From contig OY781066.1 in the NCBI GenBank assembly GCA_963676395.1, forward strand, positions 640,001-704,000: 64,000 bases of DNA. Reading direction: 5' to 3'. Below are positions 4,461 through 51,364 of the stretch, piece after piece (within the stretch, counting starts at the first letter, position 1; every line of letters begins with the position of its first letter). Under the pieces are notes generated by a model. It worked only from the letters and a program-made list of their open reading frames with translations. It ran no database searches and was not told the origin of the DNA. The translations under genes and the position numbers were made by a program. The DNA comes from a bacterium. GTDB lineage: Bacteria; Fidelibacterota; Fidelibacteria; Fidelibacterales; Fidelibacteraceae.

Positions 4461-4628
4461 TGCTTATTACAATATTCTTATTGAATAATAGGTTTACAGA
4501 GACAATAAAGGTTAGTTCTCAGTTTTTTGTAAGTTGCATACTGTATAATAATATGTAATAGTAATATGATTATGAGGTGCTCTCAGGAGCGAAAGGTTTT
4601 GCTTATAAGTATTAATTTTGGGAATAAT

Positions 4629-8904: not shown

Positions 8905-11900
8905 TTATTTTTCTATCGTGATCTCTATTGAATCATCAAATAGAATATCACCATTACTTTGAACCTGTTCTTTTTGTGAGAGGACTCTGATCTCTACGCG
9001 GCGGTTTGCCTCGCGTCCCTCAACTGTATTATTATCAGCTATTGGATATTCCCGTCCATAACCTTTCATTTCAATTCTGCTAGGTTGGATCAAATATTTC
9101 TTGATCAAAACCTCACGTACGGCTTCTGCACGACGTTCCGATAATACTTTCCCAACCTTCCAACTACCTACATTATCACTGTATCCTTCGATTCGTATTT
9201 TTGCCCAAGGCTGCCAACGCAAAAATTCTGCGATCTTTGCAATACCTTCATCCTCAACAGATTTGAGTTTTGGAGAGTGGAATTCGAAGTCGGAATCTTC
9301 TATAACTTCCATAAAAAGCAAACGATTTACTTCGGTTGAAATGGTATTCATCATCAATGGGGTTTGATGTAATCTACCATCTCCAATATGGTATTCAAGC
9401 ATTGATACGACAGAACTGTGTGAACCGATCTCTTCGGTTTCATTTGGCAATAACTGGAAACTCATTTCATGCTGTTTAGATTCTTTTAGATCACCCATAT
9501 CCCAAATAATTGCATTTTTACCTGCTATTTCAGGTTTATATGATGCAAAATCCAGTTTACTGACCGTTTCGTCCAGAATAAAACCTTTAGGTAGATATGT
9601 GTAGAATTTAACGTCCTTAAGTAAGATAGAACCGGTATAGTTCAGATCTAACTGAAGGTTGATCTTTTGTTTTTCATCTGGAGCTACGCGAACCGGGAAA
9701 AAAGTCAGCTTAATGATGCGTCGTCCATTCTTCTCAACTCTAGACAAATCTTTTAAGTACTTACATTTGATCCGCCGTTTTTCTATACCGAATCCCTGCA
9801 GTTCTTTACACATGACATCTACAGGCTGCTGTTCTGCTTTAATAGATTTATGCATCATATTGACATCAAAACCATTGCTTTTAAAAGCTTCTTCAACGAG
9901 AACCGTAACATCACTACGCCAATTAAGATATTTTTTAATGTCTATCAGCTCTTTGCTTTTTGATAACTCATAACGGTTATTATCATTATTATATTCAAGA
10001 ACTAATTTCATTGACCAAGGATCATAGGAAGTCATTCTTAATGCCCTAGTCATTGTTTCTTGTTCTATATCAACAACAGATCTTTCAGGAAGCTGTTTAT
10101 TGTTTTTAGGTTTTTCTGCTTTTGTTACAACTTTTTTCTCGGGTACAAAGTTTTCGCCACCGAGTACAAAATTCGCTTTAGCGATACCCGAGGCGGATAG
10201 CTTAACAAGTCTTGAATCCGTATCGCCAAGGAAATCACTTGAAGAAAGTAATACATGAGTATTCTTGGGCAAGGTAATTGGATTAATCTTAAGTACATGA
10301 GACCCTAAGCGTACACTTGGAATTGAGTATTTACCATATTCATCTGTAGTAACTCTTACACCATTTTCAGTAACTAATTCAACATTTTTAAAAGTCTCTT
10401 CATCATTATCGTGCATGTTGTTTCCATTGCGATCGTAAAATACTTTACCAAAGATCAAACCATAACCTTGCATCATACTTGGTTTAATAACAACCTTGGC
10501 AACAGCTATATTAGAAAGAACCTGATCACCTGTTTGGAAGTAACCTCGAGCAGATGCCATATTTTCATTCTCACCGAAGCTGCAATTCATACCGACAACG
10601 GTACGATACTTAATCTTTATACTTCCCCCCGGAGCAATGGAACGATCAACATGCCATAATAGTGTTGCCCGATTATCTTGCATAAGCATTTCGGGATCGG
10701 CAATAGTCTCGGTACCAATAATGGTACGACCTTCACGATATCTGAAACCGACAGGAAGTTTATCGGTCAGCAAAAAGTTTGTAATACCTTGATCTTCACT
10801 TTGATTTGTTACTTCAACGGTATATGTCAACACATCACCCAATTCGGCGATCTGTTTGTTTACAGTTTTTTTAACAACAAGAAATGGAGCAATAATACTT
10901 GAAGTTGCCTTTGTACGGAGATCATCGGCAGTATAAGCTGTATCATTTTCAGTATAGATATAAGCAGTATTCGTGATATCTTTTTCAATATTAGCCGTAA
11001 CTTCAACAAGAAAAGTAATTGAATCGTGCTGTTGAGCGTGCATACCATAACGAAGGAATGAAACTTCATTGCTAACCGGGTTATATCTATCAAAACGCAT
11101 ACCCATACCATTAACAAATGAACTTTCGATAAATTCAACTTCTTCGGGAAGCTGATCTACAAGATGAATAGTATCGGCGATCACATTATCCAATGTTTGG
11201 AAATAAATTGTGTACCTTAAACTATCACCCTTAACCACAATCTCTTTATCTACCCGTTTGTATACATCAAAAAGAATCGGCTCATTGTAGATATCGGCAT
11301 TAATCACATGAATACCGCTTTGATCTAAATTTACTTCCCGGGTTCCTGCATAGAAATATTCGCCTTTTCCAAAAATAGCATCGATCCTGTAATTGCCAAG
11401 ATCCAATTTATTAAAATAAAAGAAACCACTTGTATCAGTGCTCACAGAATCAATATATACGGGATTGTCATTATATTTATTCAGGGTGTTTTCACTAAGG
11501 TGGCTTAAGTAAATACTGACTCCCGATCTACGGATAGGATCACCTGACATATGATCAACGATCCTTCCAGATAAAGCAGCCGTATTTTTAACATCATCAA
11601 CCTGTCCTGTACCGGAATCGGTAACCTCAACTGGCTGATCAATCGTATGACTATCACCTTTTTTATCATTGAATTGAACTCTAATGATATAATCACCGGA
11701 ATGATAAAGAGCAATACTATAGTTACCGGATTCATCTGTGACAGCTGATCCGATAATATTACCACCCTGGATCAACAGTACTATAGCACCACTTACGGGC
11801 AATCCGGAATTATCACGAACAACACCGTTAACTCTTCGTGCATAAAATACAACATCGGTGGAGTCAGTTAATCTATCACCATTTACAGCAACAACTTCGG

Positions 11901-14148
11901 CACTGACCTTTGTTGGTACATAATCGGTAGATACAACCTCTGAACGCAAACGCATTTCGGCATAGCCGTTTGAAGTACTGACAATATGATTTGTACTTAA
12001 TAGAGTACCGTGTTCAGTATAAAAATGAACATCGGTACCATCGGATACTGGTCTCCCGGCACCATCAAATACACGGGCTGTTAATTGTGTATAATCTTCA
12101 CCATTTCCAATGACTGAATCAGGATTCGCTGTTAAATCTAATTTATAAGGCTTGATCTCAGTAATAAAAGTATTTGATTCAGAAACAACACCCAATGATT
12201 GAATGTTTGCTTTATTTTTAATCTCTTCGACCGCTATATGATCTTCTTTTATTTTAACATCAAGTTTAACACTACCTTGAGTATTAAGAGCTAAATGTCC
12301 TAAATTCCACATTACAGTATTATAAGTACTATTGTAATTATATGCGCCGGTTGCAGAGATAAATTTTAAGTGCTCACTTAAGGTATCAACAATAACGGTT
12401 GATGTTGCAACAGCATTTCCTTGATTAGCATAATTAAAAATATAGCGGATCGTATCACCAACCAATGCTTCATCGACTGAAGATTTAACCAGGCTTAATC
12501 CTGGAGCGGAAACAATTTCGACAAGGGATGTATCTTCTGCAGAAAATCCACAATCAGATTCCATTACAGCATTGTTATTTAACTCAGTACCGTTTACCAA
12601 AGGTTTATGAACCCTAACACTCAAGTTTAATGCTTGCGATGAGCTCATTAAAGCATCCACATCACCAAGAAACCATTGAATCACATGATCATGGGTATAA
12701 TAATGGTAGGTACCGGAAGCAGATATAAAATCGACATGAGCAGCTAAAGTATCATAAACCATTACATTCTTTGCTATACCATGTCCGCTATTAATATAAT
12801 CAATCGAATAATTTACCAGTTCACCCGCCTGCACTTTAGTGCTGTCGGCTGTTTTACTTATTTGTAATATAGGTGACTCAATTAAAATATCGGAATAAGC
12901 TGAAGCAGCCTTTCCTTCGAAACATACAATATCAGATTCACTGCGTAAATAACTTCCATCTGGAACACTTTTTTTAATTCTTACTGTAACTTCAACCGTA
13001 TCTTGTTTACCGGCACTCAATGGATCAGGATGAAAGGTGATATCATTATCATAAAGATCATAAATCGCACTCATGGAAGATGAAATATACTCCATATTCT
13101 TGTGCAAAGTTTCTTTCATTTCCAAACCGGTAGCGGCAGCATTCCCACGGTTTTCGATGAAGATTTGATATGTGACAGTATCTAAAGGTGAAGCATATGA
13201 AGGCATACTTCTTTGCATATAAAGATCAGGTTCACCTAATGATTCAGATACAAGTACTTTAGCGGATGTATACTTTTGTTCCCCCCCGGAACTTACGGAT
13301 GCAAAGTTAACAATATTGGTACCGGCCGGGACACCATCACGAACAATTACCATTACACTTCTTTCAACAATGTCACCCGGGTGAACATCACCTACAGACC
13401 ATGAAACGATGCCACTTTGTTCTTGCTTATCACCGCTTGCCGAAACAAAAACCAATTCTTGTGGCAAATCATCAAATAGCATAACATTATAGGCTGGAGC
13501 ATTACCCATGTTAAAAATGCGTATATTGTAATTAAGAGTTTCACCGGGCCTTGCACTGGGCTTATCAACTATTTTTTCTATACTAAGTGAAGCCTTATTC
13601 CCAATTAGAATACTTGCCGGTGCAGAAATACCCTTAACTTTTTCAGCAGTTTCGTAAACCGCCGTGTTTAAAATTTCTTCATCATGTGAAAAACCGGGAG
13701 GAACCATACAGAAGATATCAAACTGTAAAGCATTCCCGAAATTTAAACTAAGATTATCCCAGGTAAGAACATTAGCGTTCACCTGAGCTGGTGGATTAGA
13801 GCTAAGATAGGTTAATTCACTGGGTAAGGTATCGGAAACCGAAAATGAAGAAGCGATGAAATTACCCGTATTACTGATCTCAATATGATATTTTACTGTA
13901 TCCATGGGAAGGTAAACGGGTGAATCAACCGATTTAGAGATTGTTAAAAGATATGCCGGTGCAACAACAGTCGTTGTTTGCTCACTTGAAACATTATAAC
14001 GATAACCACCCGCATCAGAATAACTACCATGTGCGGTATTGGTGATCTCAGTTCCAAAAGGAGTTTGCGCATAAATGCAACTAATACTTGATACAACAAG
14101 TACCAGCAGCATATAAATTACCCGCAATGTCAGAAACCGGTCTCTCAT
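8905..14148 (-). CDS. Multi-DUF11 repeat protein with Big_1-like, carboxypeptidase-regulatory-like, SdrD-B-like and C-terminal OmpA domains
   Basis: About seven L-x-I-x-K...Y-x-I...N-x-G...D-x-LP...N-x-A repeats; GKVFYDRNGN; OmpA motifs IEGYSDNVG, LSERRAEAV, GYG, NRRVEI. Confidence 0.88.
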   Translation of the reverse strand: MRDRFLTLRVIYMLLVLVVSSISCIYAQTPFGTEITNTAHGSYSDAGGYRYNVSSEQTTTVVAPAYLLTISKSVDSPVYLPMDTVKYHIEISNTGNFIASSFSVSDTLPSELTYLSSNPPAQVNANVLTWDNLSLNFGNALQFDIFCMVPPGFSHDEEILNTAVYETAEKVKGISAPASILIGNKASLSIEKIVDKPSARPGETLNYNIRIFNMGNAPAYNVMLFDDLPQELVFVSASGDKQEQSGIVSWSVGDVHPGDIVERSVMVIVRDGVPAGTNIVNFASVSSGGEQKYTSAKVLVSESLGEPDLYMQRSMPSYASPLDTVTYQIFIENRGNAAATGLEMKETLHKNMEYISSSMSAIYDLYDNDITFHPDPLSAGKQDTVEVTVRIKKSVPDGSYLRSESDIVCFEGKAASAYSDILIESPILQISKTADSTKVQAGELVNYSIDYINSGHGIAKNVMVYDTLAAHVDFISASGTYHYYTHDHVIQWFLGDVDALMSSSQALNLSVRVHKPLVNGTELNNNAVMESDCGFSAEDTSLVEIVSAPGLSLVKSSVDEALVGDTIRYIFNYANQGNAVATSTVIVDTLSEHLKFISATGAYNYNSTYNTVMWNLGHLALNTQGSVKLDVKIKEDHIAVEEIKNKANIQSLGVVSESNTFITEIKPYKLDLTANPDSVIGNGEDYTQLTARVFDGAGRPVSDGTDVHFYTEHGTLLSTNHIVSTSNGYAEMRLRSEVVSTDYVPTKVSAEVVAVNGDRLTDSTDVVFYARRVNGVVRDNSGLPVSGAIVLLIQGGNIIGSAVTDESGNYSIALYHSGDYIIRVQFNDKKGDSHTIDQPVEVTDSGTGQVDDVKNTAALSGRIVDHMSGDPIRRSGVSIYLSHLSENTLNKYNDNPVYIDSVSTDTSGFFYFNKLDLGNYRIDAIFGKGEYFYAGTREVNLDQSGIHVINADIYNEPILFDVYKRVDKEIVVKGDSLRYTIYFQTLDNVIADTIHLVDQLPEEVEFIESSFVNGMGMRFDRYNPVSNEVSFLRYGMHAQQHDSITFLVEVTANIEKDITNTAYIYTENDTAYTADDLRTKATSSIIAPFLVVKKTVNKQIAELGDVLTYTVEVTNQSEDQGITNFLLTDKLPVGFRYREGRTIIGTETIADPEMLMQDNRATLLWHVDRSIAPGGSIKIKYRTVVGMNCSFGENENMASARGYFQTGDQVLSNIAVAKVVIKPSMMQGYGLIFGKVFYDRNGNNMHDNDEETFKNVELVTENGVRVTTDEYGKYSIPSVRLGSHVLKINPITLPKNTHVLLSSSDFLGDTDSRLVKLSASGIAKANFVLGGENFVPEKKVVTKAEKPKNNKQLPERSVVDIEQETMTRALRMTSYDPWSMKLVLEYNNDNNRYELSKSKELIDIKKYLNWRSDVTVLVEEAFKSNGFDVNMMHKSIKAEQQPVDVMCKELQGFGIEKRRIKCKYLKDLSRVEKNGRRIIKLTFFPVRVAPDEKQKINLQLDLNYTGSILLKDVKFYTYLPKGFILDETVSKLDFASYKPEIAGKNAIIWDMGDLKESKQHEMSFQLLPNETEEIGSHSSVVSMLEYHIGDGRLHQTPLMMNTISTEVNRLLFMEVIEDSDFEFHSPKLKSVEDEGIAKIAEFLRWQPWAKIRIEGYSDNVGSWKVGKVLSERRAEAVREVLIKKYLIQPSRIEMKGYGREYPIADNNTVEGREANRRVEIRVLSQKEQVQSNGDILFDDSIEITIEK

Positions 14149-14195: not shown

Positions 14196-14231
14196 ATTTT
14201 ATTTCAAAGATAACGTTAAGCGTTAAACTTA

Positions 14232-15911
14232 TTATTGAATTTTAGTTTTAAATTCAACGGTTGTTGAAGCGCCGGCACCCAAAGTAGGAAGTTCGAAGAC
14301 AACGGTATTTTTTTCAAGTTGTGCTTCATCTTCATCCTTGGCATCTGTTTTTGCTACACCACCCAGTTTCATAGTACCTCTTTGATACCATGTGTTTTCA
14401 GGGACATCATCATCAATTCTTAGATCTGTTGCAACACCTGTACCAACGTTTAAAATAGTAATGGTGTATGTCAGAACTGTACCTGGAGGTTGGTTACCTG
14501 TAGGCGATACGGCTTTTAAAAGGGATAGGATAGGAGCCGTAACAGTGATTGTTAATTCACCTTCGTCTGACTCATCTTCATTTCCTTCTGAAGTGGCTGT
14601 AAGGGTCATAACAGAAACAACTTCATCAGGTGTACCTGCCGGAATCTGGCCTTTGGCAACAAGATATACAACTGCACCCTGAGCCATTGTAGCTGTTTGA
14701 GCATCTTCTAGTTCTTCTTCATCTTCATCGATCCGACCGTTTTCATTGGCGTCCAAATAGAATTCCCAATCTGGGATCAAATCACAGACCTCAGAAATAT
14801 TCATTTTGTCGGGACCATTACCTTTATTGGTCACCGTAACTGCGTAATAAACATAATCTGAGGGGTCACCGACAGTTACCTGATCGGAACCTACTGCAAC
14901 AAACCAGATCTGAGCTACTGTTAACGTAGCACCACTGGCATTAGCTGATACAGCGAGCTGATCTTCACCTAAAATATTCTTCCAAAGCAATACGGCTGCA
15001 TTGGCAATGACTGTATTTACAGGAACATTATCATTGATTACAATCTGGAAAGTTGCTGTTGCACTTGAGCCACTGCTGATTTCATCAAACATGAAATTGG
15101 CAACTGAAGGAACGCCTTCGATAAATTCAGCGTCATCATCACCTTTATCGTCTGATTGTGCTACCCCATTGATCTTAAGAGATCCGGCTACATATGACGT
15201 GTTTACAGCAATACCTGCCGCAAATACAACATCCTGAGCATCTGCCGAACCTGTATTGGTTACTGCCAATGTATAAGTAACAACATCACCCGGTTGAGGA
15301 TCATTGTTATCAGCAGTCATCGTAAAGGTATACTCTGAAGTTTTTACTCGTACGCCCATGTATGCGGCTGTTTTGATCTCATTATTAAAACGTGATTCCA
15401 AACCAAGTGTAATATTTGCTGATGAAGCATCTTCTCCCGAAATATTTTCAACAACGACGACAATGTTGTATGACGTGTACATTGCCATATCAGGAGTTTC
15501 TCTGACTTCTTCTTCGCCTTCATCTACAACGCCATTTCCGTTGGCATCATGATATACGGTTGAAACAAATTCATCTCCTGTAGGACTTTGAAGAGCATTG
15601 CTGATCTTATATGAATCAACACCGTTTCCCGTATTAACGATCGACATTGGAAATGATACTGTTCCGTATAAAACCATATTCTGGAAAGCTTCCATCGGCG
15701 ATAAATCCACACCGGCAACCTGTGATACGATCGTTGTTACTGTGTTTGAGGTTACGCTGGCCATGGCATTGCCATTGGCATCACGGTAGTTACCTGTTGC
15801 AAAGTTGCTGATCTCTGTGCCTGCCGGTGTTGGTAGAGCAACCATTGCAAAGGCAACACTCGACAACATTATCGTTGCCAAAAGTGCGACTAATACATGT
15901 TTAAATTTCAT
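14232..15911 (-). CDS. Secreted DUF11-repeat protein, candidate major fibre subunit (copy 1)
   Basis: Signal peptide, TPAGTEISNFA N-terminus, internal DUF11/Ig-like repeats, D-x-N-x-NG Ca-binding-like loops, C-terminal truncated DUF11. Confidence 0.85.
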   Translation of the reverse strand: MKFKHVLVALLATIMLSSVAFAMVALPTPAGTEISNFATGNYRDANGNAMASVTSNTVTTIVSQVAGVDLSPMEAFQNMVLYGTVSFPMSIVNTGNGVDSYKISNALQSPTGDEFVSTVYHDANGNGVVDEGEEEVRETPDMAMYTSYNIVVVVENISGEDASSANITLGLESRFNNEIKTAAYMGVRVKTSEYTFTMTADNNDPQPGDVVTYTLAVTNTGSADAQDVVFAAGIAVNTSYVAGSLKINGVAQSDDKGDDDAEFIEGVPSVANFMFDEISSGSSATATFQIVINDNVPVNTVIANAAVLLWKNILGEDQLAVSANASGATLTVAQIWFVAVGSDQVTVGDPSDYVYYAVTVTNKGNGPDKMNISEVCDLIPDWEFYLDANENGRIDEDEEELEDAQTATMAQGAVVYLVAKGQIPAGTPDEVVSVMTLTATSEGNEDESDEGELTITVTAPILSLLKAVSPTGNQPPGTVLTYTITILNVGTGVATDLRIDDDVPENTWYQRGTMKLGGVAKTDAKDEDEAQLEKNTVVFELPTLGAGASTTVEFKTKIQ

Positions 15912-15929
15912 CTGTCTCTCCTTAAAATA

Positions 15930-16418
15930 TTATTTTACTGTTACTTCAAATTCGAGCTGCTTACTTTCTTTCGGTGTAAGCGATTTCTTCAATTCCCATT
16001 GTACGTGTGTAACCATATCGGGGGAAGCGGCTTTTTTAACCATTTTACCATTTTTGTCTTTTATCTCATACTTAGGAGGCCATGCCTGATAAGTTCTGCC
16101 ACCATCAATAGAAAAACTTACATCTGCATGTTTACCTTTGGCCGAATTAGGTTTATACGATGTACCGGCTGGAATAGGATCCGTGATCACTGGTTCTGTC
16201 ATGGTTCCTGTTCCTATATTCTGTGCCCAAACCGTATATTTGATCACATCACCCGGTCGATAGGCAATTGCTTCTGTGCCCATTCTTTCTGCCTGACTCA
16301 TGTTCATTTTCTTTTCTGCGATGCGCAGTTCAAGCTTTGGGCTACCTTGTGCAAATGCTGCAGTACCAAAAACTAAAGCTACCAACAGAACGAGGACTGT
16401 TAATTTACGTAGTTTCAT
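15930..16418 (-). CDS. Small secreted single-DUF11 protein (copy 1)
   Basis: Signal peptide; PGDVIKYTVWAQNIG, ITDPIP, FSIDGG, ends LEFEVTVK. Confidence 0.85.
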   Translation of the reverse strand: MKLRKLTVLVLLVALVFGTAAFAQGSPKLELRIAEKKMNMSQAERMGTEAIAYRPGDVIKYTVWAQNIGTGTMTEPVITDPIPAGTSYKPNSAKGKHADVSFSIDGGRTYQAWPPKYEIKDKNGKMVKKAASPDMVTHVQWELKKSLTPKESKQLEFEVTVK

Positions 16419-16430
16419 TCTCTCTCCTTT

Positions 16431-17195
16431 TTATTTGACTACTACTTTATATATTACATTACCACTGCCACCGGCCTCTAAATTACCATTTAATGTAAAA
16501 AGCAAATCAGTAACAGGTAAGGTCTCTTCGTTATTATATGTTAATCCGCCATCATGGCTGTAAGTGACAGTCATATTATTTCCAGCAGCCGTACCGGGGA
16601 CATAATCCGTATTACTGCCTATCGTTTCATAGATCATTACAGAAGTTGCATCACCATCACCGCTATTTACATACGTAAGCGTATAAGTAAGCTGCTCTCC
16701 CGGAAGTCCGGTACTTTTATCTACAGATTTATTCAAAACAAGAAGCGGCGCTGTTGTACCCTGAACATTAACAGTTGCAGTAGGACCTATTTGTGTTTGA
16801 GAAATTCGATATCCCGTAACTCCGACATATACACCGAAATCACCCGTTTTTAAACTGGTAGTCGCTTTAAAATTAATCACTACCTTTTCTCCACTCCACA
16901 TAAGGAACCAATTAGTCCATGTTAACTGGTTTCCGTTGATATATGGATTTGAGTTTGTAGCACCATAAGTAGAGTTATTTACATAAGTAAATCCATCGGG
17001 TAAAACGACTACAGTTTGTGTTGGCATAATCCAATTTCGTCCGGTATTCCTTATCGTTAGAACATAAGTTACTTCTTCTTGAGGAGCTACTGCAGAAGGT
17101 GTTGCTGTTAAAGATAATGAGACGGCAGCAAAAAGGCTTGTAAGCGAAAAAGCCACTAGCAGAACTACAATTTTTTTCATAATTGTTTTTCTCAT
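16431..17195 (-). CDS. Secreted two-domain DUF11 protein
   Basis: Signal peptide; VTYVLTIRNTG..LPDGFTY and LVLNKSVDK..PGEQLTYTL repeats. Confidence 0.85.
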   Translation of the reverse strand: MRKTIMKKIVVLLVAFSLTSLFAAVSLSLTATPSAVAPQEEVTYVLTIRNTGRNWIMPTQTVVVLPDGFTYVNNSTYGATNSNPYINGNQLTWTNWFLMWSGEKVVINFKATTSLKTGDFGVYVGVTGYRISQTQIGPTATVNVQGTTAPLLVLNKSVDKSTGLPGEQLTYTLTYVNSGDGDATSVMIYETIGSNTDYVPGTAAGNNMTVTYSHDGGLTYNNEETLPVTDLLFTLNGNLEAGGSGNVIYKVVVK

Positions 17196-17371: not shown

Positions 17372-17664
17372 TATTTTTCTCTTAATTAAGAATTAATAAT
17401 TTCTTTACTAATTCTTAACTTTTCCAACACCATCTTGTACAACTACCTCAAACAGTATACTATATATAGATTCAACATCAAATTCTGCTGTTTCCGATTG
17501 ATATTCTATCACTTTTTCTTCATTGAAATCTTTCATTCACTCTGTCTTTTCGCATATTTTTTGAGACTTACCTCAGTGGCACATATTATATCTTGAATAC
17601 CCCACACCCTTTAGCCAAAAGCAATGCAATTGCTATATTACAACAACACACTAAGCTTAATTCT

Positions 17665-17781
17665 TTAGATATTGGAAGTTAAGTTCCTACTCAGAATTGG
17701 GTGTGACAGCAGGATAAGATGGATAGCTCCAAGAGCCCCACCTTGTCCATGCGCCATGTTTGATTTTTGATTGTCTCTCAT
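17665..17781 (-). CDS. 38-aa small protein A (not in ORF track): MRDNQKSNMAHGQGGALGAIHLILLSHPILSRNLTSNI
   Basis: Ungapped 15/38 identity with ORF at 22071-22187, with synonymous codon differences; GA-rich RBS. Confidence 0.7.
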   Translation of the reverse strand: MRDNQKSNMAHGQGGALGAIHLILLSHPILSRNLTSNI

Positions 17782-17840
17782 GTCTTCAATCTCTCTCATC
17801 ATTCACACTAGTCTATGTCTTCATCATTCATTCTAATATC

Positions 17841-17929
17841 ATATTACACAGGTTGTTATAGGATTCCTAATTAATTATCTTTAATAAACACTTAAGAATA
17901 ATTCAAGGTAGATTTAAGGAATATTCAAG
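17841..17929 (-). promoter_or_regulatory. Promoter cassette A: four T(T/C)AAG boxes at 11-bp period plus TAGGAA-N17-TAATAT
   Basis: Boxes at 17892, 17903, 17914, 17925; homologous to cassettes at 20567 and 22250. Confidence 0.65.
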
Positions 17930-18004
17930 AAGAAAATTGCTAATCGGATTTCAATACTTATCATTCGAGATTCCCGCACTATCTCTCAATTCCTATCTTT
18001 ATAT

Positions 18005-18030
18005 AAAAAGCCTCGATTTCTCGAGGCTTT
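18005..18030 (-). terminator. Intrinsic terminator after 559-aa copy 2
   Basis: AAAAAGCCTCGA-tttc-TCGAGGCTTT. Confidence 0.75.
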
Positions 18031-18057
18031 CTCATTGTATTAAAGTTCTTAAGTTTA

Positions 18058-19737
18058 TTATTGGATTTTAGTTTTAAATTCAACGGTTGTTGAAGCGCCG
18101 GCATCCAAAGTAGGAAGTTGAAAAACAACGGTATTTTCTTCAAGTTGTGCTTCATCCTCATCCTCGGCATCTGTTTTTGCTACACCACCCAGTTTCATAG
18201 TACCTCTTTGATACCATGTATTTTCAGGAACATCATCATCAATTCTTAGATCTGTTGCAACACCTGTACCAACGTTTAAAATAGTAATGGTGTATGTCAG
18301 AACTGTACCTGGAGGTTGGTTACCTGTAGGCGATACGGCTTTTAAAAGGGATAGGATAGGAGCCGTAACAGTGATTGTTAATTCACCTTCGTCTGACTCA
18401 TCTTCATTTCCTTCTGAAGTGGCTGTAAGGGTCATAACAGAAACAACTTCATCAGGTGTACCTGCCGGAATCTGGCCTTTGGCAACAAGATATACAACTG
18501 CACCCTGAGCCATTGTAGCTGTTTGAGCATCTTCTAGTTCTTCTTCATCTTCATCGATCCGACCGTTTTCATTGGCGTCCAAATAGAATTCCCAATCTGG
18601 GATCAAATCACAGACCTCAGAAATATTCATTTTGTCGGGACCATTACCTTTATTGGTCACCGTAACTGCGTAATAAACATAATCTGAGGGGTCACCGACA
18701 GTTACCTGATCGGAACCTACTGCAACAAACCAGATCTGAGCTACTGTTAACGTAGCACCACTGGCATTAGCTGATACAGCGAGCTGATCTTCACCTAAAA
18801 TATTCTTCCAAAGCAATACGGCTGCATTGGCAATGACTGTATTTACAGGAACATTATCATTGATTACAATCTGGAAAGTTGCTGTTGCACTTGAGCCACT
18901 GCTGATTTCATCAAACATGAAATTGGCAACTGAAGGAACGCCTTCGATAAATTCAGCGTCATCATCACCTTTATCGTCTGATTGTGCTACCCCATTGATC
19001 TTAAGAGATCCGGCTACATATGACGTGTTTACAGCAATACCTGCCGCAAATACAACATCCTGAGCATCTGCCGAACCTGTATTGGTTACTGCCAATGTAT
19101 AAGTAACAACATCACCCGGTTGAGGATCATTGTTATCAGCAGTCATCGTAAAGGTATACTCTGAAGTTTTTACTCGTACGCCCATGTATGCGGCTGTTTT
19201 GATCTCATTATTAAAACGTGATTCCAAACCAAGTGTAATATTTGCTGATGAAGCATCTTCTCCCGAAATATTTTCAACAACGACGACAATGTTGTATGAC
19301 GTGTACATTGCCATATCAGGAGTTTCTCTGACTTCTTCTTCGCCTTCATCTACAACGCCATTTCCGTTGGCATCATGATATACGGTTGAAACAAATTCAT
19401 CTCCTGTAGGACTTTGAAGAGCATTGCTGATCTTATATGAATCAACACCGTTTCCCGTATTAACGATCGACATTGGAAATGATACTGTTCCGTATAAAAC
19501 CATATTCTGGAAAGCTTCCATCGGCGATAAATCCACACCGGCAACCTGTGATACGATCGTTGTTACTGTGTTTGAGGTTACGCTGGCCATGGCATTGCCA
19601 TTGGCATCACGGTAGTTACCTGTTGCAAAGTTGCTGATCTCTGTGCCTGCCGGTGTTGGTAGAGCAACCATTGCAAAGGCAACACTCGACAACATTATCG
19701 TTGCCAAAAGTGCGACTAATACATGTTTAAATTTCAT
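18058..19737 (-). CDS. Secreted DUF11-repeat protein, candidate major fibre subunit (copy 2)
   Basis: Identical to 14232-15911 except K/E, K/E, E/Q and G/D near the C-terminus. Confidence 0.85.
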   Translation of the reverse strand: MKFKHVLVALLATIMLSSVAFAMVALPTPAGTEISNFATGNYRDANGNAMASVTSNTVTTIVSQVAGVDLSPMEAFQNMVLYGTVSFPMSIVNTGNGVDSYKISNALQSPTGDEFVSTVYHDANGNGVVDEGEEEVRETPDMAMYTSYNIVVVVENISGEDASSANITLGLESRFNNEIKTAAYMGVRVKTSEYTFTMTADNNDPQPGDVVTYTLAVTNTGSADAQDVVFAAGIAVNTSYVAGSLKINGVAQSDDKGDDDAEFIEGVPSVANFMFDEISSGSSATATFQIVINDNVPVNTVIANAAVLLWKNILGEDQLAVSANASGATLTVAQIWFVAVGSDQVTVGDPSDYVYYAVTVTNKGNGPDKMNISEVCDLIPDWEFYLDANENGRIDEDEEELEDAQTATMAQGAVVYLVAKGQIPAGTPDEVVSVMTLTATSEGNEDESDEGELTITVTAPILSLLKAVSPTGNQPPGTVLTYTITILNVGTGVATDLRIDDDVPENTWYQRGTMKLGGVAKTDAEDEDEAQLEENTVVFQLPTLDAGASTTVEFKTKIQ

Positions 19738-19755
19738 CTGTCTCTCCTTAAAATA

Positions 19756-20244
19756 TTATTTTACTGTTACTTCAAATTCGAGCTGCTTACTTTCTTTCGG
19801 TGTAAGCGATTTCTTCAATTCCCATTGTACGTGTGTAACCATATCGGGGGAAGCGGCTTTTTTAACCATTTTACCATTTTTGTCTTTTATCTCATACTTA
19901 GGAGGCCATGCCTGATAAGTTCTGCCACCATCAATAGAAAAACTTACATCTGCATGTTTACCTTTGGCCGAATTAGGTTTATACGATGTACCGGCTGGAA
20001 TAGGATCCGTGATCACTGGTTCTGTCATGGTTCCTGTTCCTATATTCTGTGCCCAAACCGTATATTTGATCACATCACCCGGTCGATAGGCAATTGCTTC
20101 TGTGCCCATTCTTTCTGCCTGACTCATGTTCATTTTCTTTTCTGCGATGCGCAGTTCAAGCTTTGGGCTACCTTGTGCAAATGCTGCAGTACCAAAAACT
20201 AAAGCTACCAACAGAACGAGGACTGTTAATTTACGTAGTTTCAT
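19756..20244 (-). CDS. Small secreted single-DUF11 protein (copy 2)
   Basis: Identical to 15930-16418. Confidence 0.85.
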   Translation of the reverse strand: MKLRKLTVLVLLVALVFGTAAFAQGSPKLELRIAEKKMNMSQAERMGTEAIAYRPGDVIKYTVWAQNIGTGTMTEPVITDPIPAGTSYKPNSAKGKHADVSFSIDGGRTYQAWPPKYEIKDKNGKMVKKAASPDMVTHVQWELKKSLTPKESKQLEFEVTVK

Positions 20245-20391
20245 TCTCTCTCCTTTTTATTTGACTACCAGTTTGTCTTCTTTATTAGACTCTTTTCAAC
20301 TTCAAACATATACTTTATTAAATAATAGCAAAAAAATTAAAAGCAAGCGCATAGACATGGTTACAAAACCATATCAAGAAAAATAAAGCTC

Positions 20392-20508
20392 TTAATTTTT
20401 CAGTTCTAGATTACTATTAAGATATATTGAATTCCCCTTTGAGGGAAACACTCTATCATATCTTATAGTAAAATCACAATCCCATGTTGTTGTTTGAATT
20501 TGATACAT
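20392..20508 (-). CDS. Possible 38-aa small protein C: MYQIQTTTWDCDFTIRYDRVFPSKGNSIYLNSNLELKN
   Basis: Same length and same distance from the promoter cassette as peptides A and B, but little sequence similarity. Confidence 0.25.
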   Translation of the reverse strand: MYQIQTTTWDCDFTIRYDRVFPSKGNSIYLNSNLELKN

Positions 20509-20566
20509 CTCTTCATTCTCTCTCCATTCACTCACTTCACATATCTTCGACTATCTCTCTATATGC

Positions 20567-20655
20567 ATATTACACAGCAAGTTAAGTATTTCCTAATTAA
20601 TTATAATTAATAAACACTTAAGTTTAATTAAAGATCAGCTTACAAAATAATTAAC
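20567..20655 (-). promoter_or_regulatory. Promoter cassette C: TTAAG-like boxes at 11-bp period plus TAGGAA-N17-TAATAT
   Basis: Boxes at 20618, 20629, 20640, 20651; shares TTCCTAATTAATTAT..TAATAAACACTTAAG with cassette A. Confidence 0.65.
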
Positions 20656-20689
20656 ATCATCATATCAATATCAGCTTAAAATTCATCAA

Positions 20690-21065
20690 TTGTACTTTAA
20701 CTCGATGCTAATAACTACCACACTGCTGTCGACGTCCATTTCGTTATTAACAGCAAAATCACTTCTATATTCCGGATAATTTTACTGATCCTTGCTTATA
20801 TATTATGTTCTCAGATATTTTATCTTCAATAATAACATCAGTTAAATTTCCATTTAGGGTCATGATAATAAATTGTGTATAGGATGACATCTCAATATCT
20901 AATAACAGTTTTATAGTGTTGGGGGACTATTAGAGTGCTATTGGCATTACGAGAATTTCCGTCACAACATTAAGGCTCTCTGTAACCACAACAAAATCTG
21001 CAAAAAACTGTCATTAATACAGAAAGAATAAAAAGGAACATCCTTTAGATCTTTATTCTCTCATC
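20690..21065 (-). pseudogene. Decayed DUF11 gene
   Basis: Frameshifted fragments DVILYTIYY and GNLTDVIIEDKISENIIYKQGSVKLSG match the 559-aa C-terminal domain (ATDLRIDDDVPENTWYQRGTMKLGG); boundaries approximate. Confidence 0.6.
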
Positions 21066-21080
21066 ATATTTATTCTTGAT

Positions 21081-21569
21081 TTATTTTACAATAACCTGGA
21101 ATTCCAGCTCCTTGCTTGCATTAGGAGCTAAAGATTTTTTCAATTCCCATTGAATATGTGTAATCATATCCGGTGAAGCCATCTTTTTAACGGTTTTTCC
21201 ATCTCTATCCTTAATTTCGTATTTTGGTGGCCAGGATTGGTATACTTTTCCACCATCAATAGAAAATACGATATCTGCAAAACTTCCTTTTGCACTGTGA
21301 GGCTTATAGGAAGTCCCCGTAGGAATAGGATCACTTATCACCGGCTCGGTCATCATGCCTTTTCCTACATTTTGGGCCAATACGGCATAGCGTATCATAT
21401 CACCGGGTTTGCAGGTAACTTTAACCTTACCCATTTTTTCTGCTTGAGTCATATTGATCTTGGTCTCAATAATAGTCAATTCCAACTTTGGTCTGTCCTG
21501 AGCAAAAGAAAACACAGAATAAAACAAAACCAAAACCATTATAAATGGTAATTTTTTGCCTGTCTTCAT
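21081..21569 (-). CDS. Small secreted single-DUF11 protein (diverged third paralog)
   Basis: Same length and clearly alignable to the 162-aa pair (WPPKYEIKD, WELKKSL). Confidence 0.85.
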   Translation of the reverse strand: MKTGKKLPFIMVLVLFYSVFSFAQDRPKLELTIIETKINMTQAEKMGKVKVTCKPGDMIRYAVLAQNVGKGMMTEPVISDPIPTGTSYKPHSAKGSFADIVFSIDGGKVYQSWPPKYEIKDRDGKTVKKMASPDMITHIQWELKKSLAPNASKELEFQVIVK

Positions 21570-21650
21570 TCATCAACTCCGATCTTCATTCATTCTTGAT
21601 CATTTACATATGATCAACATACCATATTGCCGGAAATGTGCTTAGTCAAA

Positions 21651-21749
21651 TTACTTTTTAGAAAAAAGCGCCGTATAAACTGCCATAATCAGTGAACTGA
21701 CCACTGCTGAAGTAAAACTGCTAAATTTTTCTTTCATATCTTGGATCAT
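21651..21749 (-). CDS. Possible 32-aa hydrophobic peptide MIQDMKEKFSSFTSAVVSSLIMAVYTALFSKK
   Basis: GAGGAGAGAGAAGG purine tract upstream; alternative ATG at 21737; single hydrophobic helix. Confidence 0.35.
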   Translation of the reverse strand: MIQDMKEKFSSFTSAVVSSLIMAVYTALFSKK

Positions 21750-21803
21750 CCTTCTCTCTCCTCTTTGATACGGACTTGTTATTCCAACATTACTAAGCAT
21801 TCC

Positions 21804-21875
21804 GGTCTCTCAATTCCTCTTGCCTAACATGTGGTCCGCTTTATCGAACCCGAAACATAGCCCGTTAGTTTCAAT
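21804..21875 (-). ncRNA. Candidate structured 5' leader RNA, copy 2
   Basis: 72-nt homolog of 17263-17334. Confidence 0.45.
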
Positions 21876-21883
21876 GTTAAACA

Positions 21884-21912
21884 AGTTTATAAAACAAATT
21901 AATATGATGCAA
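21884..21912 (-). promoter_or_regulatory. Predicted sigma70-type promoter TTGCAT-N17-TAAACT
   Basis: Same architecture as 17343-17371. Confidence 0.55.
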
Positions 21913-22070
21913 GAATTTTCTCCTTTATCATATACAATTGCTTGCTAAGATTTGGGGGTACTTTATCATTCATAAACCGTTGACACGTGTTAATTCAAAT
22001 ATCTAACAGTTATGATGAAGATTTTTCGTTTACAAATTCCCTAATAATTCGGATCGACTTTTCAAGGATC

Positions 22071-22187
22071 TTATATGTTTGATCCTCGATTAACGTCAAT
22101 CAGGGGGATCGACAAGAGTATCAGGTGAACACCACCCGGTCTCGTAATCGAACTATTTGTCTGATTTGAACTATGTTCAGCTTTCAA
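22071..22187 (-). CDS. 38-aa small protein B (TTG start): MKAEHSSNQTNSSITRPGGVHLILLSIPLIDVNRGSNI
   Basis: Paralog of 17665-17781; GA-rich RBS; in-frame stop shortly upstream. Confidence 0.7.
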   Translation of the reverse strand: MKAEHSSNQTNSSITRPGGVHLILLSIPLIDVNRGSNI

Positions 22188-22249
22188 AACGTCTCTCTTT
22201 CTCTCTTCACATCAGCCCGCTAAATGTCTTCATCACTTACCGTATTAAC

Positions 22250-22328
22250 ATATTAGACAATCAGCCAAGAAATTCCTAATTAAGTTATACTCAATGTTTT
22301 GTTAAGAAATAATTAAGAGAACATTAAG
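22250..22328 (-). promoter_or_regulatory. Promoter cassette B: three TTAAG boxes at 11-bp period plus TAGGAA-N17-TAATAT
   Basis: Boxes at 22302, 22313, 22324. Confidence 0.65.
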
Positions 22329-22452: not shown

Positions 22453-24756
22453 ATGATCAATGAAGATAGAATTCAGAAGATATTTGCAATGAACAAATTC
22501 ATTCTTGATATTATTGAAGAGCAAATTATTTATCTTGATAAAAACTTAAAAGTAAAATGGCTAAATAAAGCTGCCAGTGAAGCAACCGGGAAAAGTCAAG
22601 ACGAAATTAAAGGTCAGCTATGCTGTGAGTTGTTTAATCACCCAAAAATATTTTGTGAGAGTTGCCCCGTTAAACGATCAGCTAAAACAGGAGAGCTTTG
22701 CAAAGCAAGAATAAGCACTGCTGACAATAAGATATTCGACATACATGCTCATCCTCTAAAAAAAAATAAAAATGATATAAATGGTACCATCATGGTAGTC
22801 AAGGATATTACACAAAAAGAAAATGCTGTTTCGAGTGACATTTACACCAAGAATATTTATAAAGCGATCTTTGAAAATACCGGTAGTGCAACAGTATTGA
22901 TAAACAAAGATACAACAATTGATGTTGCCAATTCCCTCTTTGAAAAGCTATCAGGTTACGCAAAAAAAGATATTGAAGGTAAAATGTCTTGGACTGACTT
23001 TGTTGTACCCGAAGATCTAAAACGAATGAAAAAGCAGCATGATCTAAGACGTAACGATAATAGAAGAGCTCTTAATTCTTATGAATTCAGATTTATCGAC
23101 CGCAACCAAAACATTAAAGATATTCTATTAACTGTCGATATGATCCCTGAGACAAATAACAGCGTTGCATCACTTCTTGATATCACTGAAAAAAACACCT
23201 ATTTAAGAAATTTAATAAACAGAGAAAAAAATCTAAGCGCTCTACTTGAAAACCCCTCCGGTTATATTATATATAGAACACGCTTCAATATTGAAACCAA
23301 TAAGATAGACATTATAAACGTAAGCCCTTCAGCACATGATATCCTGGGATTAGATGGTAAAGAACTCATGACTTTTAGTGACTGGTTTAAACATATTGAT
23401 CATGAAGATATTGAGAGAATAAAAGAAGCTAGTGATAGAGGAATGAAGCCTCCCTTTATATTTGAGGAAACCGTGAGATATCACCATCCGGAAAAGGGAT
23501 TGATCTGGCTGGAAATTAGAGCTCGAGGAGTACCATATGATAACAACCCTCAATGTATTGAGTATGCAAATGGCATCATTCTGGATATCACGAAACAAAA
23601 ACTCTTTGAACAAGAATTAAATATAGCTAAAAACAAAGCCGAAGAAAGTGATCGTTTAAAGTCGGCCTTCTTGGCTAATATCAGTCATGAAATACGCACC
23701 CCTATGAATGGTATATTAGGCTTTATTGAGCTATTGAACAGCGAAGAACTAAGTGAAGATAGACAAAAGAATTATTTAAACATCGTTAATAAAAGCGGAC
23801 AAAGAATGCTTAATACTTTAAATGATCTTATTGATATTGCTAAGATAGAAGCTGGAGTAATGAAGGTTCATCATAATAATTTTAACTTCGTTGATGAATT
23901 GCACCATATTTATGATTTTTTCAAACCTGCAGTCCAGGAAAAAGGCTTAACATTTATACTGGATTTACCAAAAGTTTCCCAACATAAAATTATTAACAGT
24001 GATCAAAATAAATTTACTACAATCATTTCAAGCTTGATAAAAAATGCCATTAAATTTACCGACAAGGGTTCAATTTCTCTCGTTTGTGAAGTAAAGAATA
24101 ATGAGCTTACTATAGCAGTTAAAGATACCGGATCGGGTATTCCCGATTCGAGGCAAGATGCCATATTCAATCGCTTCGAACAAGGTGATATTAAAGATCA
24201 TCTGGCAAAACAAGGTTCCGGACTCGGTTTATCTATTGCAAAAGCATATACTGACATGATAGGAGCAAAACTTTGGTTCGAAACTACCCTAAATGAAGGA
24301 AGCACCTTTTTTCTTTCACTCCCTTTAAATAACAACAGCAAAAACGGAAGCATAGATATTATGACTAAATCGCAAGAAATAAACAAAGCTTTAAGCGACA
24401 GCATCATTCTGATCGTGGAAGATGATGAAGATTCACAATTTTTTCTTAAAATTATACTGGAAAACAGATGCAAAAAAATAATACTGGTTCAAAACGGTTT
24501 AGAAGCAGTCAAGGCTGTAAAAGAAAATAAAAACATAGACTTTATTCTAATGGATATTAAACTTCCTAAAATGGATGGTGTAACCGCCACTCATGAGATC
24601 AGGAAATTCAATAAAAATGTTTATATTATCGCACAAACGGCATATGCTTTTCACGGAGATAAGGACAAATTTATTAATGCCGGTTGTAACGAATATATTA
24701 CAAAACCGATCAATAAAGAAAAACTTCTGTCAATATTTAATAAATATCTATCTTAA
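22453..24756 (+). CDS. Cytoplasmic PAS-PAS-PAS hybrid histidine kinase with receiver domain
   Basis: PAS motifs, FLANISHEIRTPMNG, NAIKFT, DTGSGI, GSGLGL, receiver VEDD..LMDIKLP..MDG..TKP. Confidence 0.92.
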   Translation: MINEDRIQKIFAMNKFILDIIEEQIIYLDKNLKVKWLNKAASEATGKSQDEIKGQLCCELFNHPKIFCESCPVKRSAKTGELCKARISTADNKIFDIHAHPLKKNKNDINGTIMVVKDITQKENAVSSDIYTKNIYKAIFENTGSATVLINKDTTIDVANSLFEKLSGYAKKDIEGKMSWTDFVVPEDLKRMKKQHDLRRNDNRRALNSYEFRFIDRNQNIKDILLTVDMIPETNNSVASLLDITEKNTYLRNLINREKNLSALLENPSGYIIYRTRFNIETNKIDIINVSPSAHDILGLDGKELMTFSDWFKHIDHEDIERIKEASDRGMKPPFIFEETVRYHHPEKGLIWLEIRARGVPYDNNPQCIEYANGIILDITKQKLFEQELNIAKNKAEESDRLKSAFLANISHEIRTPMNGILGFIELLNSEELSEDRQKNYLNIVNKSGQRMLNTLNDLIDIAKIEAGVMKVHHNNFNFVDELHHIYDFFKPAVQEKGLTFILDLPKVSQHKIINSDQNKFTTIISSLIKNAIKFTDKGSISLVCEVKNNELTIAVKDTGSGIPDSRQDAIFNRFEQGDIKDHLAKQGSGLGLSIAKAYTDMIGAKLWFETTLNEGSTFFLSLPLNNNSKNGSIDIMTKSQEINKALSDSIILIVEDDEDSQFFLKIILENRCKKIILVQNGLEAVKAVKENKNIDFILMDIKLPKMDGVTATHEIRKFNKNVYIIAQTAYAFHGDKDKFINAGCNEYITKPINKEKLLSIFNKYLS

Positions 24757-28488: not shown

Positions 28489-29062
28489 TTACTCGTGATT
28501 AATTGGATACTGTAATGTAAACCTATTATAGATATCCCATATAAAAAAATCGTTGCAATAAATATCAACTCTATTATCAATTGAATCTCCTTTACTTTCC
28601 CAATAACTCCGAATGATCCTCATATACGCTGATGCGTAAAGAAGATTAGTCCTGTCATCTCCAAGTTTATCAATGATCTCTTGTGGAGACTGACTCACAG
28701 TCAGAATTTTTTCATATTTATTTCCTGGATAAAACTCTGATAAACTATCTGTCAATTGGCACTCAATCCAATAAGCAGTCTTCATCTTTACCTGACAGAA
28801 ACCAATGGAACTATTCTTACCTTTTTTAGCCAGATAATTATCAAAGTACTCATCGCGCCAATCATAGTTATTGGTTCGTTCTACATAAGTAATAGCTTTG
28901 AGTTTTAGTGGATCGATATCGAAAGATTTGGAGTCATATTCAATATTATCAGACTGTTCTTTGAGCTTGATCATCTTGTCCTAGTGCTATTGATGAACAA
29001 CATAAAAGGAATAATAGAAATATTATTATATTCTTTTTGTTATACCATTTTAGTAAGTCCAT
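28489..29062 (-). pseudogene. Frameshifted secreted lysozyme-like/transglycosylase-like gene
   Basis: Signal peptide (MDLLKWYNKKNIIIFLLFLLCCSSIALGQ, ATG 29062) lies in a different frame from the body with AITYVE, SIGFCQVK, NLLYASAY. Confidence 0.5.
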
Positions 29063-29078: not shown

Positions 29079-29678
29079 TTAATATTTTATTACAATCTTT
29101 TTATTATCAATATTAGCCCAAATTAAATAAGTCGTGTATCCCCCTGATGAAATAATATTTTTATCAACTGTTGTTGAAATAACCCTTCCAATATCAGGAG
29201 CATATAATTGAGTCATTGTATAAATATCACAATCAAGTGAATATTTTAAACAATTATTTATTTTTCCCAGATTTGTTTCAATAGTATCATTTTTAGAGAG
29301 AATTGTACAATAAATCATATATGGAATTTGTTGCCAAGTATTATTAATATTTAAATTGAAGTCGAGGTGTACGTATTCAACATTATCAATAAGCCAATAC
29401 ACAATGCCATTTTCTACCCTATATATCTGTTGGGCTCTATGCTCATTTGAAATTGGTTCATAAGTATTCATTACATAATATGTTTTATCATTCAAAATAT
29501 AAGTTGAATCAATTCTTGATATTGTTGAATCAGAAAAAAAAGTATTTGCTCCAGGCGAATAGTAATGCCATTCATTACCAACCTGCAGCGGATAATAATC
29601 TCCTTCTACAGTTATCGGATCAATTCCGTTACAAGAAAGAAAAAAAATTATTAATGATATTAAAAATAATATTCTCAT
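29079..29678 (-). CDS. Hypothetical lipoprotein
   Basis: Lipobox FLSC; YYPLQVGNEWHY; very AT-rich. Confidence 0.75.
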   Translation of the reverse strand: MRILFLISLIIFFLSCNGIDPITVEGDYYPLQVGNEWHYYSPGANTFFSDSTISRIDSTYILNDKTYYVMNTYEPISNEHRAQQIYRVENGIVYWLIDNVEYVHLDFNLNINNTWQQIPYMIYCTILSKNDTIETNLGKINNCLKYSLDCDIYTMTQLYAPDIGRVISTTVDKNIISSGGYTTYLIWANIDNKKIVIKY

Positions 29679-42426: not shown

Positions 42427-42436
42427 TTAAATTCTC

Positions 42437-51362: not shown

Positions 51363-51364
51363 AC

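Follow-up and report, generated by a model that had tools for sequence, protein, structure and literature searches.

What keeps two very short and divergent open reading frames (ORFs) intact in front of paralogous sets of surface-protein genes? The question is raised by a genome segment of a bacterium of the Fidelibacteraceae (GenBank assembly GCA_963676395.1, contig OY781066.1, positions 640,001 to 704,000 of the forward strand). The whole segment of 64,000 nucleotides (nt) is called the window below, and its first nucleotide is position 1. A cluster of genes coding surface proteins with the DUF11 domain (“conserved repeat domain”) occupies its minus strand from about 22320 to 5818 and is composed of three paralogous units, A, B and C. 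In units A and C an unannotated small ORF of 38 codons (sORF A and sORF C) is found behind a promoter-like cassette. A first-pass annotation, carried out on the sequence alone, had proposed that the two encoded peptides are paralogues under protein-level selection and that they act as a leader or attenuator peptide, as a kinase-modulating small protein or as the precursor of a processed peptide. We find that the C-terminal half of the sORFs is under purifying selection and that this pair of small ORFs is real but lineage-restricted. As for its role, we tentatively prefer a leader peptide that is encoded in the 5′ leader of the DUF11 surface-protein operons and acts in cis, a possible reading that is weighed below together with its alternatives.

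Conservation of the sORF A and sORF C Peptides

sORF A codes for MRDNQKSNMAHGQGGALGAIHLILLSHPILSRNLTSNI and sORF C, which starts with TTG, for (M)KAEHSSNQTNSSITRPGGVHLILLSIPLIDVNRGSNI. The coordinates, lengths and translations of the two ORFs (17781–17665 and 22187–22071) and their gap-free alignment were all reproduced as initially described. The 15 identical residues out of 38 counted in the first-pass annotation include the TTG codon of sORF C read as methionine; plain translation gives 14/38. The nucleotide identity is 56/117, distributed as 20, 24 and 12 matches of 39 at codon positions 1, 2 and 3, respectively, and a comparison in the other five frames yielded only 3–6 identical residues. 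In codons 18–38, 12 of 21 residues are identical and the matches at the three codon positions are 12, 15 and 4 of 21; the corresponding values for codons 1–17 are 7, 8 and 7 of 17. The conserved tail comprises the last 18–21 residues and reads G-x-[IV]-HLILLS-x-P-x4-N-x2-SNI-stop, both frames ending with SNI-TAA. To judge from their sequence, the two peptides carry neither a signal peptide nor a hydrophobic run of transmembrane length. An in-frame ATG-ATG located 21 nt upstream of the sORF A start would yield a form of 45 amino acids (aa).

Selection on the peptide was assessed by placing the observed A/C mismatches at random in 20000 trials. None of the shuffled pairs reached the 12 identities observed in codons 18–38 (mean 4.7, standard deviation 1.5) or the 11 identities observed in codons 21–38, and the 14 identities of the whole ORF were attained in 12 trials. 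The dN/dS check (nonsynonymous relative to synonymous change) suggested in the first-pass annotation was run on the A/C pair by the Nei-Gojobori method, which gave a proportion of nonsynonymous differences (pN) of 0.32 and of synonymous differences (pS) of about 1.0 in codons 18–38, as compared to 0.58 and 0.62 in codons 2–17. The adjacent pair of genes coding 162-aa proteins has a pN of 0.23 and a pS of 0.78. The C-terminal half of the sORF is under purifying selection about as firm as that acting on this neighbouring gene. The N-terminal 17 codons look as if they evolve neutrally, yet their frame is open and their length is kept. Shuffles and pN/pS alike support protein-level selection on the C-terminal half of the two sORFs, but not on the N-terminal half. 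Both sORFs are probably translated.

The use of a different synonymous codon at every conserved residue from H21 onwards, which had drawn attention to the pair, is correct for all 11 differences listed. Over the whole ORF, 13 of the 14 conserved residues differ in codon as compared to 9.0 expected at saturation from the codon usage of the genome, and all 11 do so in the C-terminal half (P 0.005). The corresponding number for the 162-aa pair is 54 of 94 conserved residues (52.8 expected). The excess found in the sORFs is a curiosity that may be a selection effect, the feature having been picked out after the sequence had been seen. The HLILLS core features minor codons in both copies (relative usage: CTG 0.11, CTC 0.07, TCG 0.11). 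No variants inside the sORFs were found in contigs from three runs, in which only the contigs of the source sample itself span them.

The GA and GG dipeptides at aligned positions 18–19 had suggested a precursor of double-glycine type, cut after G18-A19 or G18-G19, whose conserved C-terminal part of 19 residues would be the exported peptide. We consider this extremely improbable. Double-glycine leaders carry a conserved hydrophobic and acidic pattern, whereas the N-terminal part of the sORFs evolves neutrally and lacks it; the part that is conserved is the C-terminal half and not the leader. The processing peptidase family Peptidase_C39 (PF03412) has no match in the single-contig 2.34-Mb genome, in a search whose control was positive in 7 of 14 genomes. 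Genes for modifying enzymes or transporters do not adjoin the sORFs.

Position of the sORFs Behind a Repeated Cassette

A 35-nt cassette, TTAATTAGGAA-N13-TGTNTAATATG, is invariant in all three units and precedes DUF11 genes in each of them (3/3). Exactly three copies are present in the 2,335,625-bp genome according to both a pattern search and an nhmmer profile, which retrieved them with E values of 4e-30 to 3e-25 (next best match E 5.5). The distance from the cassette end to the ORF start is 58 nt in unit A, 57 nt in unit B and 61 nt in unit C, which confirms that sORFs A and C are the first ORFs about 60 nt behind a homologous element. The cassette is a putative weak sigma-70-type promoter that could be read as TTAGGA-N18-TAATAT or as TTAAGT/TTAACA-N16-17-TAATTA; in cassette A the two readings are TTAGGA-N18-TAATAT and TTAAGT-N16-TAATTA. 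The −10-like word of this genome, TATATT, is strand-specific and peaks 31–40 nt before start codons, an interval in which it was counted 63 times over 939 upstream regions. An inverted-repeat scan identified no flanking repeats of the invertible-promoter type, only unit-specific pairs of 13–14 nt.

The boxes GATGAAGACAT and GTGAA and the GAGAGAGA tract are kept in the leaders behind the cassette. The purine tract (GAGAGAGA or GAAAGAGAGA) sits 8–9 nt before the sORF starts. The 16S rRNA tail of the organism is CCUCCUUUC, and a core Shine-Dalgarno (SD) sequence is found in front of 48% of 1422 long ORFs as compared to 7.7% of random sites. The tract preceding the sORFs is a partial SD match at a workable distance. 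The hexamer TGAAGA, which forms part of the GATGAAGACAT box, is the most strand-biased one upstream of genes (66 occurrences vs 22 on the opposite strand in the 939 upstream regions) and shows no positional peak. An AT-rich element precedes cassette C (CTCTTAAyTnTTTCTTAAC...; Table 1). Its similarity to a sequence of the related genome G019 is marginal (local score 51.5; shuffle maximum 49.5). Weak counterparts before the DUF11 operons of relatives are located at 4437–4567 of locus L027 and in the upstream region of genome G017 (locus L030), where the element overlaps a good promoter-like site, TTGACA-N17-TACATT.

Unit B has a third ORF of 117 nt at the same place (20508–20392), described in the first-pass annotation as barely similar. 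This was confirmed, only 5/38 and 3/38 residues being identical with sORF A and sORF C, respectively. ORF B was rejected as a third family member: the peptide is unrelated and the start codon best placed relative to a ribosome-binding sequence opens a different frame of 17 codons (Table 1). The DNA of units A and B is nevertheless 75% identical over 154 nt and remains alignable in four segments, namely the cassette, the leader, roughly 30 nt at the beginning of the ORF and the DNA that follows it. Since the non-coding parts of unit B were kept while the peptide was lost, cassette and leader would serve the downstream operon, and the sORF would therefore be a leader ORF by position.

A Candidate Cis-Acting Leader Peptide

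In the reading that we tentatively prefer, each unit would begin with a promoter-like cassette and a leader of ~55 nt that carries a purine-rich tract for ribosome binding; the sORF would come next, separated from the DUF11 genes by 320–470 nt. Function would reside in the last 18–21 residues of the peptide, acting in cis within the ribosome exit tunnel. At the stop codon or close to it, the nascent tail would delay or halt the ribosome, and the waiting ribosome would prevent a hairpin that starts at or just after this codon from forming. With the hairpin blocked, read-through would be favoured and both transcription and translation would continue into the DUF11 genes. Promoter activity, translation, cis action and stalling are what we infer from sequence features.

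We propose a leader peptide because in the operon leaders the sORF comes first after the cassette and because the constraint begins at residue 18 and continues through I38 and the stop codon, leaving the N-terminal half free. The capacity of the ribosome exit tunnel is close to the total length of the sORFs, and this length is part of the pattern expected of a nascent-chain effector. The minor codons of the HLILLS core and the hairpins found at or next to the stop codons, which begin at the stop or at most 9 nt from it in all three units, also point to a leader peptide. The AU-rich hairpin of unit B (Table 1) looks like a weak terminator, although its fold is not significant when compared to shuffled sequences (z −0.8).

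A more specific proposal, which we regard as unlikely, is that the HLILLS-x-P-x4-N-x2-SNI tail would be a new ribosome-arrest module that pauses termination and gates fimbria-like DUF11 operons in an uncultured bacterium bearing a type IX secretion system (T9SS); the signal sensed would have nothing to do with the supply of amino acids or polyamines. The 13 different codons among 14 conserved residues could then reflect mRNA constraints specific to each copy.

Several observations weigh against a leader peptide. The evidence for selection comes from a single sequence pair (A/C), and unit B is either functional in the absence of the peptide or not functional. The RNA folds do not stand out from shuffled sequences, either downstream of the ORFs (z +0.8, −0.8, −1.6) or in the leaders (z −1.0, −0.4, −0.5); a terminator scan found no terminator beside the sORFs, nor is there a conspicuous terminator/antiterminator fold. 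Rfam, searched between 16000 and 23000 with E up to 1, revealed no leader family at the sORFs; its sole leader match, to Phe_leader (36.3 bits vs a gathering score of 55), is found away from them at 18001–18144. The spacers are G-rich and C-poor (C/G counts of 45/105, 13/28 and 44/68), the opposite of a Rho-utilisation (rut) site. Rho is present in the genome. Long spacers (about 147–469 nt) separate the ORFs from the next gene, and the 162-aa gene of unit C is immediately preceded by a better sigma-70-like site, TTGACT-17-TATGGT. The downstream genes may therefore have their own promoters. Neither the peptide motif nor the cassette was detected upstream of the orthologous operons of relatives (0 of 15 regions scanned; best hidden Markov model (HMM) match at E 0.29), and in all collections searched no genome other than this one shows peptide or cassette. 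In G019, the closest relative with an orthologous operon (its 162-aa protein is 69.8% identical), the contiguous leader of 510 nt, bounded by a divergent oxidase gene on one side and by the start of the DUF11 genes on the other, contains no such ORF. The initial proposal of a leader or attenuator peptide fits the position of the ORF and its conservation up to the stop codon, but finds no backing in the RNA folds or in the spacers, which are not rut-like.

Distribution and Evolution

The search for the peptide motif in related genomes that had been proposed was run and found no homologue among 33 genomes of the family or 41 relatives. The collections searched may omit records very close to this genome. 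The DNA of unit A has no true match in the 41 relatives' genomes; one match in G012 (E 9e-4) is due to chance and lies inside an ORF coding an ABC ATPase. Peptide C retrieved from these genomes its own two copies and one match at E 0.37 only. The A+C profile gave 13 foreign matches in 11 of all 33 family genomes, all with E values of 0.06–0.77. The six that were inspected, some with VHLILLSH or GGLHLLLFSHP, are inside or antisense to other genes, have no cassette and lack matching start and stop codons. Larger collections gave similar results. The 45-residue in-frame extension had no candidates in a word-indexed library of 5.8 billion clusters, the A/C HMM retrieved from 1.84 billion representatives only two ankyrin-repeat proteins (P0003 and P0004, see below), and no relative of the peptide was found in the ESM Atlas (best score 0.79, which is uninformative). 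The cassette pattern has no match in species-genome contigs; its single match in a metagenome contig was rejected as chance, this contig being eukaryote-like and coding a PHD finger. For the 162-aa protein, 170 pattern matches in the species-genome contigs were obtained and none was confirmed. Full-text literature matches to HLILLS were unrelated by title (mosquito gustatory receptors; 1982 cancer-meeting abstracts) and, among the matches listed for DUF11 and leader peptide, none dealt with such an element according to its title and the start of its abstract.

Orthologues of the 162-aa protein are present in 15 of 21 other genomes of the genus. We compared 16 loci around them, none of which contains the peptide motif or the cassette, and scanned the 15 upstream regions mentioned above. 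The usual order of the operon in relatives is a gene for a ~590-aa protein, followed by those for ~160-aa, ~560-aa and large proteins, with 0.6–1.7 kb of non-coding DNA upstream. In blastn comparisons these upstream regions had short AT-rich matches only. A 98-nt block, 91% identical, is found upstream of the DUF11 operons of G004 (L031, ~600–700) and G017 (L030, ~544–641). It contains a short ORF starting with MMKLTSNVRLLKCS behind AAGGA, which may be a different leader ORF.

A tree built from the 162-aa proteins places the unit C copy as the sister of a group formed by the G019 protein and the A/B type (supports 87/92 and 90/90). Because of this topology the A/C duplication is probably older than the split from G019. 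G019 has probably lost the sORF, and the element appears dispensable.

These data bear on the view that the sORFs are an evolutionary relic, constrained in the past (for instance as a leader or a small gene of the ancestral A/C unit) and devoid of present function, or a chance pattern. Their confinement to one genome, their absence from the orthologous G019 leader, the loss of the peptide in unit B and the decayed and rearranged state of units B and C are all in line with a relic. So is their codon usage, which does not surpass that of open frames arising at random (27th–29th percentile from the top among 6094 null ORFs), although this log-likelihood is in itself uninformative. A chance pattern is excluded by permutation at P < 1.5e-4. 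A relic is difficult to reconcile with frames that are both open, with intact starts and stops, and with synonymous sites that are saturated while the 12 residues and the stop position were kept; the constraint therefore lasted for most of the divergence. We consider a relic or chance pattern quite improbable.

Gene Units and Neighbourhood

The main features are listed in Table 1. In unit A the cassette and sORF A are followed by a 469-nt spacer, the DUF11 genes coding 254-aa, 162-aa and 559-aa proteins and genes coding 1747-aa and 1028-aa proteins. In unit B a spacer of 147 nt separates ORF B, behind its cassette, from the 162-aa and 559-aa genes, which are followed by a hairpin-plus-T run. 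In unit C the order is cassette, sORF C, spacer, a 32-codon ORF, the 162-aa gene and decayed fragments of DUF11 genes, which occupy ~20650–21080 (−) between the 162-aa gene and cassette B. The 32-codon ORF has the look of a 5′-end remnant, left by a gene resembling that for the 254-aa protein. The regions behind sORF A and sORF C have the short words TTGCATCAT and TTGAGAGACC in common. The gene pairs for the 162-aa and 559-aa proteins in units A and B (14223–16444 and 18049–20270) are a recent tandem duplicate with a spacing of 3826 nt and 96–100% identity, which starts ~26 nt before the ATG of the 162-aa gene and ends just past the stop codon of the 559-aa gene. This duplicate is collapsed in the contigs of the source sample.

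Table 1. Features of the DUF11 gene cluster and its surroundings in the window.
Feature	Positions	Strand	Remarks
sORF A	17665..17781	−	117 nt, 38 codons + TAA, ATG start; conserved C-terminal half G18–I38
sORF C	22071..22187	−	117 nt, 38 codons + TAA, TTG start; paralogue of sORF A
ORF B	20392..20508	−	117 nt, 38 codons, same place as sORFs A and C, unrelated peptide; GGAG at −17, poor spacing
Alternative ORF, unit B	20463..20516	−	17 codons, MKRCIKFKQQHGIVILL; GGAG at −9, preferred SD spacing of the genome
Cassette A	17840..17874	−	TTAATTAGGAA-N13-TGTGTAATATG; putative promoter or operator
Cassette B	20566..20600	−	found by pattern and profile search
Cassette C	22249..22283	−	TTAATTAGGAA-N13-TGTCTAATATG
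Leader A	17782..17839	−	boxes GATGAAGACAT, GTGAA; purine tract GAGAGAGA at −16 to −9 from ATG
Upstream AT-rich element	22290..22319	−	CTCTTAATTATTTCTTAACAAAACATTGAG; before cassette C; weakly similar sequences precede operons of G019 and G017
AU-rich hairpin, unit B	20332..20400	−	13-nt arms, 92% complementary; 5′ arm covers ORF B stop, 3′ arm enters T7 tract
254-aa DUF11 protein	16431..17195	−	first long gene behind sORF A (469-nt spacer)
162-aa DUF11 protein, unit A	15930..16418	−	
559-aa DUF11 repeat protein, unit A	14232..15911	−	
1747-aa protein	8905..14148	−	seven DUF11 domains, Big_1, OmpA domain
162-aa DUF11 protein, unit B	19756..20244	−	identical to unit A copy
559-aa DUF11 protein, unit B	18058..19737	−	followed by hairpin-plus-T run at 18030–18005
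162-aa DUF11 protein, unit C	21081..21569	−	62% identical to A/B type
32-codon ORF, unit C	21651..21749	−	strong SD; MIQDMKEKF...
42-codon ORF in spacer between sORF A and 254-aa gene	17408..17536	−	MKDFNEEKVIEYQ...; no counterpart in units B and C
PAS hybrid histidine kinase	22453..24756	+	divergent from cassette C, ~170 nt away; PAS, HisKA, HATPase, REC

This organization is relevant to the main rival explanation, according to which the sORFs code for a free-standing small protein of 38 aa that acts in trans and is produced from its own short transcript (cassette promoter, sORF and weak hairpin). A C-terminal helix-kink-helix would serve possibly for protein binding in the cytoplasm or for membrane association, perhaps in step with two divergent types of the 162-aa DUF11 protein. 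The selection evidence (shuffles and pN/pS) applies equally to such a protein, and the two peptide types match the two 162-aa types, which are 62% identical. The 162-aa protein of unit B is identical to that of unit A while its own peptide was lost, as expected if peptide A serves in trans, and sORF C is intact in a unit that is partly decayed (32-codon relic ORF and DUF11 fragments). The long spacers and the separate promoter-like site in front of the unit C gene are compatible with an independent transcript. AlphaFold2 models the peptide with helices at residues 15–26 and 28–36, although at low confidence (predicted local distance difference test, pLDDT, of 64). On the other hand, the sORF products have neither signal peptide nor transmembrane-length run whereas the DUF11 proteins are secreted, no homologue exists in any library searched, and small folded proteins do not usually conserve their last three residues and their exact length. 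A trans-acting small protein is in our view somewhat unlikely.

A partner proposed for such a protein was the hybrid histidine kinase coded on the plus strand next to unit C (Table 1). The kinase gene is divergent from cassette C and its product has no membrane part by its Pfam layout, which means that a cytoplasmic peptide could reach it. However, it adjoins only one of the two sORFs. Neighbouring genes vary at the DUF11 loci of relatives, and none of 12 neighbouring ORFs from 7 of these loci codes a PAS kinase or any other kinase. The neighbourhood therefore gave no support to kinase modulation, which is very improbable.

If the leader peptide or the small protein is real in function, it would be an unannotated element without relatives that controls surface-structure genes in a poorly studied lineage. 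Its practical reach is limited, the element being confined to one genome in all those searched and the nearest relative doing without it. The pair also illustrates that paralogous copies in a single genome can expose selection on a very small ORF without orthologues.

Elsewhere in the window two paralogous, divergent sets of three genes (TonB-dependent receptor, DUF4876 and DUF6850) are located at 39891–45157 (−) and 48636–53937 (+), where they flank an ABC ATPase/DUF4857 operon. None of the three ORFs 25655–28009, 28489–28974 and 29079–29678 (−), which code for 784, 161 and 199 aa, matched a Pfam family with an E value of 0.01 or lower.

Comparison with Known Systems

The two ankyrin-repeat proteins P0003 and P0004 resemble the A/C profile in repeated stretches like KLLLSHPDIDVN (motif LLSHPxIDVN) over 14–15 residues. 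They pass only by summing 4–6 of their repeats, and the sORF corresponds to less than half a repeat. The sORFs do not show tandem ankyrin repeats of 33 residues, and no match to the Ank_2 domain was found in the genome. Because the genome has no ankyrin domain, the kinship was rejected and the resemblance is treated as chance or convergence.

Sda and MgrB are bacterial small proteins that modulate larger proteins. The sORF peptides are like modulators of this type in size, lack of homologues and possible helix content. They differ from them in having no known partner or membrane segment and in being encoded by an ORF that lies inside an operon leader, behind a cassette that is also present in a unit without the peptide.

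Attenuation leaders such as leuL, pheL and trpL are likewise short ORFs in a leader, and of the six codons of the HLILLS core three specify Leu and one Ile, with several minor codons among them. Unlike these leaders, the sORFs show no alternative 1:2/2:3/3:4 hairpins, no terminator and no Rfam leader match. The downstream genes are not biosynthetic and it is the amino-acid sequence that is conserved, not just the identity of the codons.

Leader peptides that arrest the ribosome at their stop codon are exemplified by TnaC (24 aa, tnaCAB operon) and SpeFL (34 aa, speF-potE operon) (PMC8450073; bioRxiv 10.1101/604074). The sORFs differ from them by the lack of sequence similarity, by being found in one genome only, by G-rich spacers with neither a C-rich rut-like stretch nor a masked terminator, and by preceding genes that encode surface proteins rather than a metabolic pathway with an obvious ligand. 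Because sequence similarity and the rut or terminator feature are absent, the sORFs were not placed in this family. They are like TnaC and SpeFL in being short and lineage-restricted ORFs in an operon leader, between the presumed promoter and the genes, with a length of about that of the exit tunnel and functional residues that are C-terminal and extend up to the stop codon (here as judged from one pair). TnaC and SpeFL would therefore be the closest known systems in working principle.

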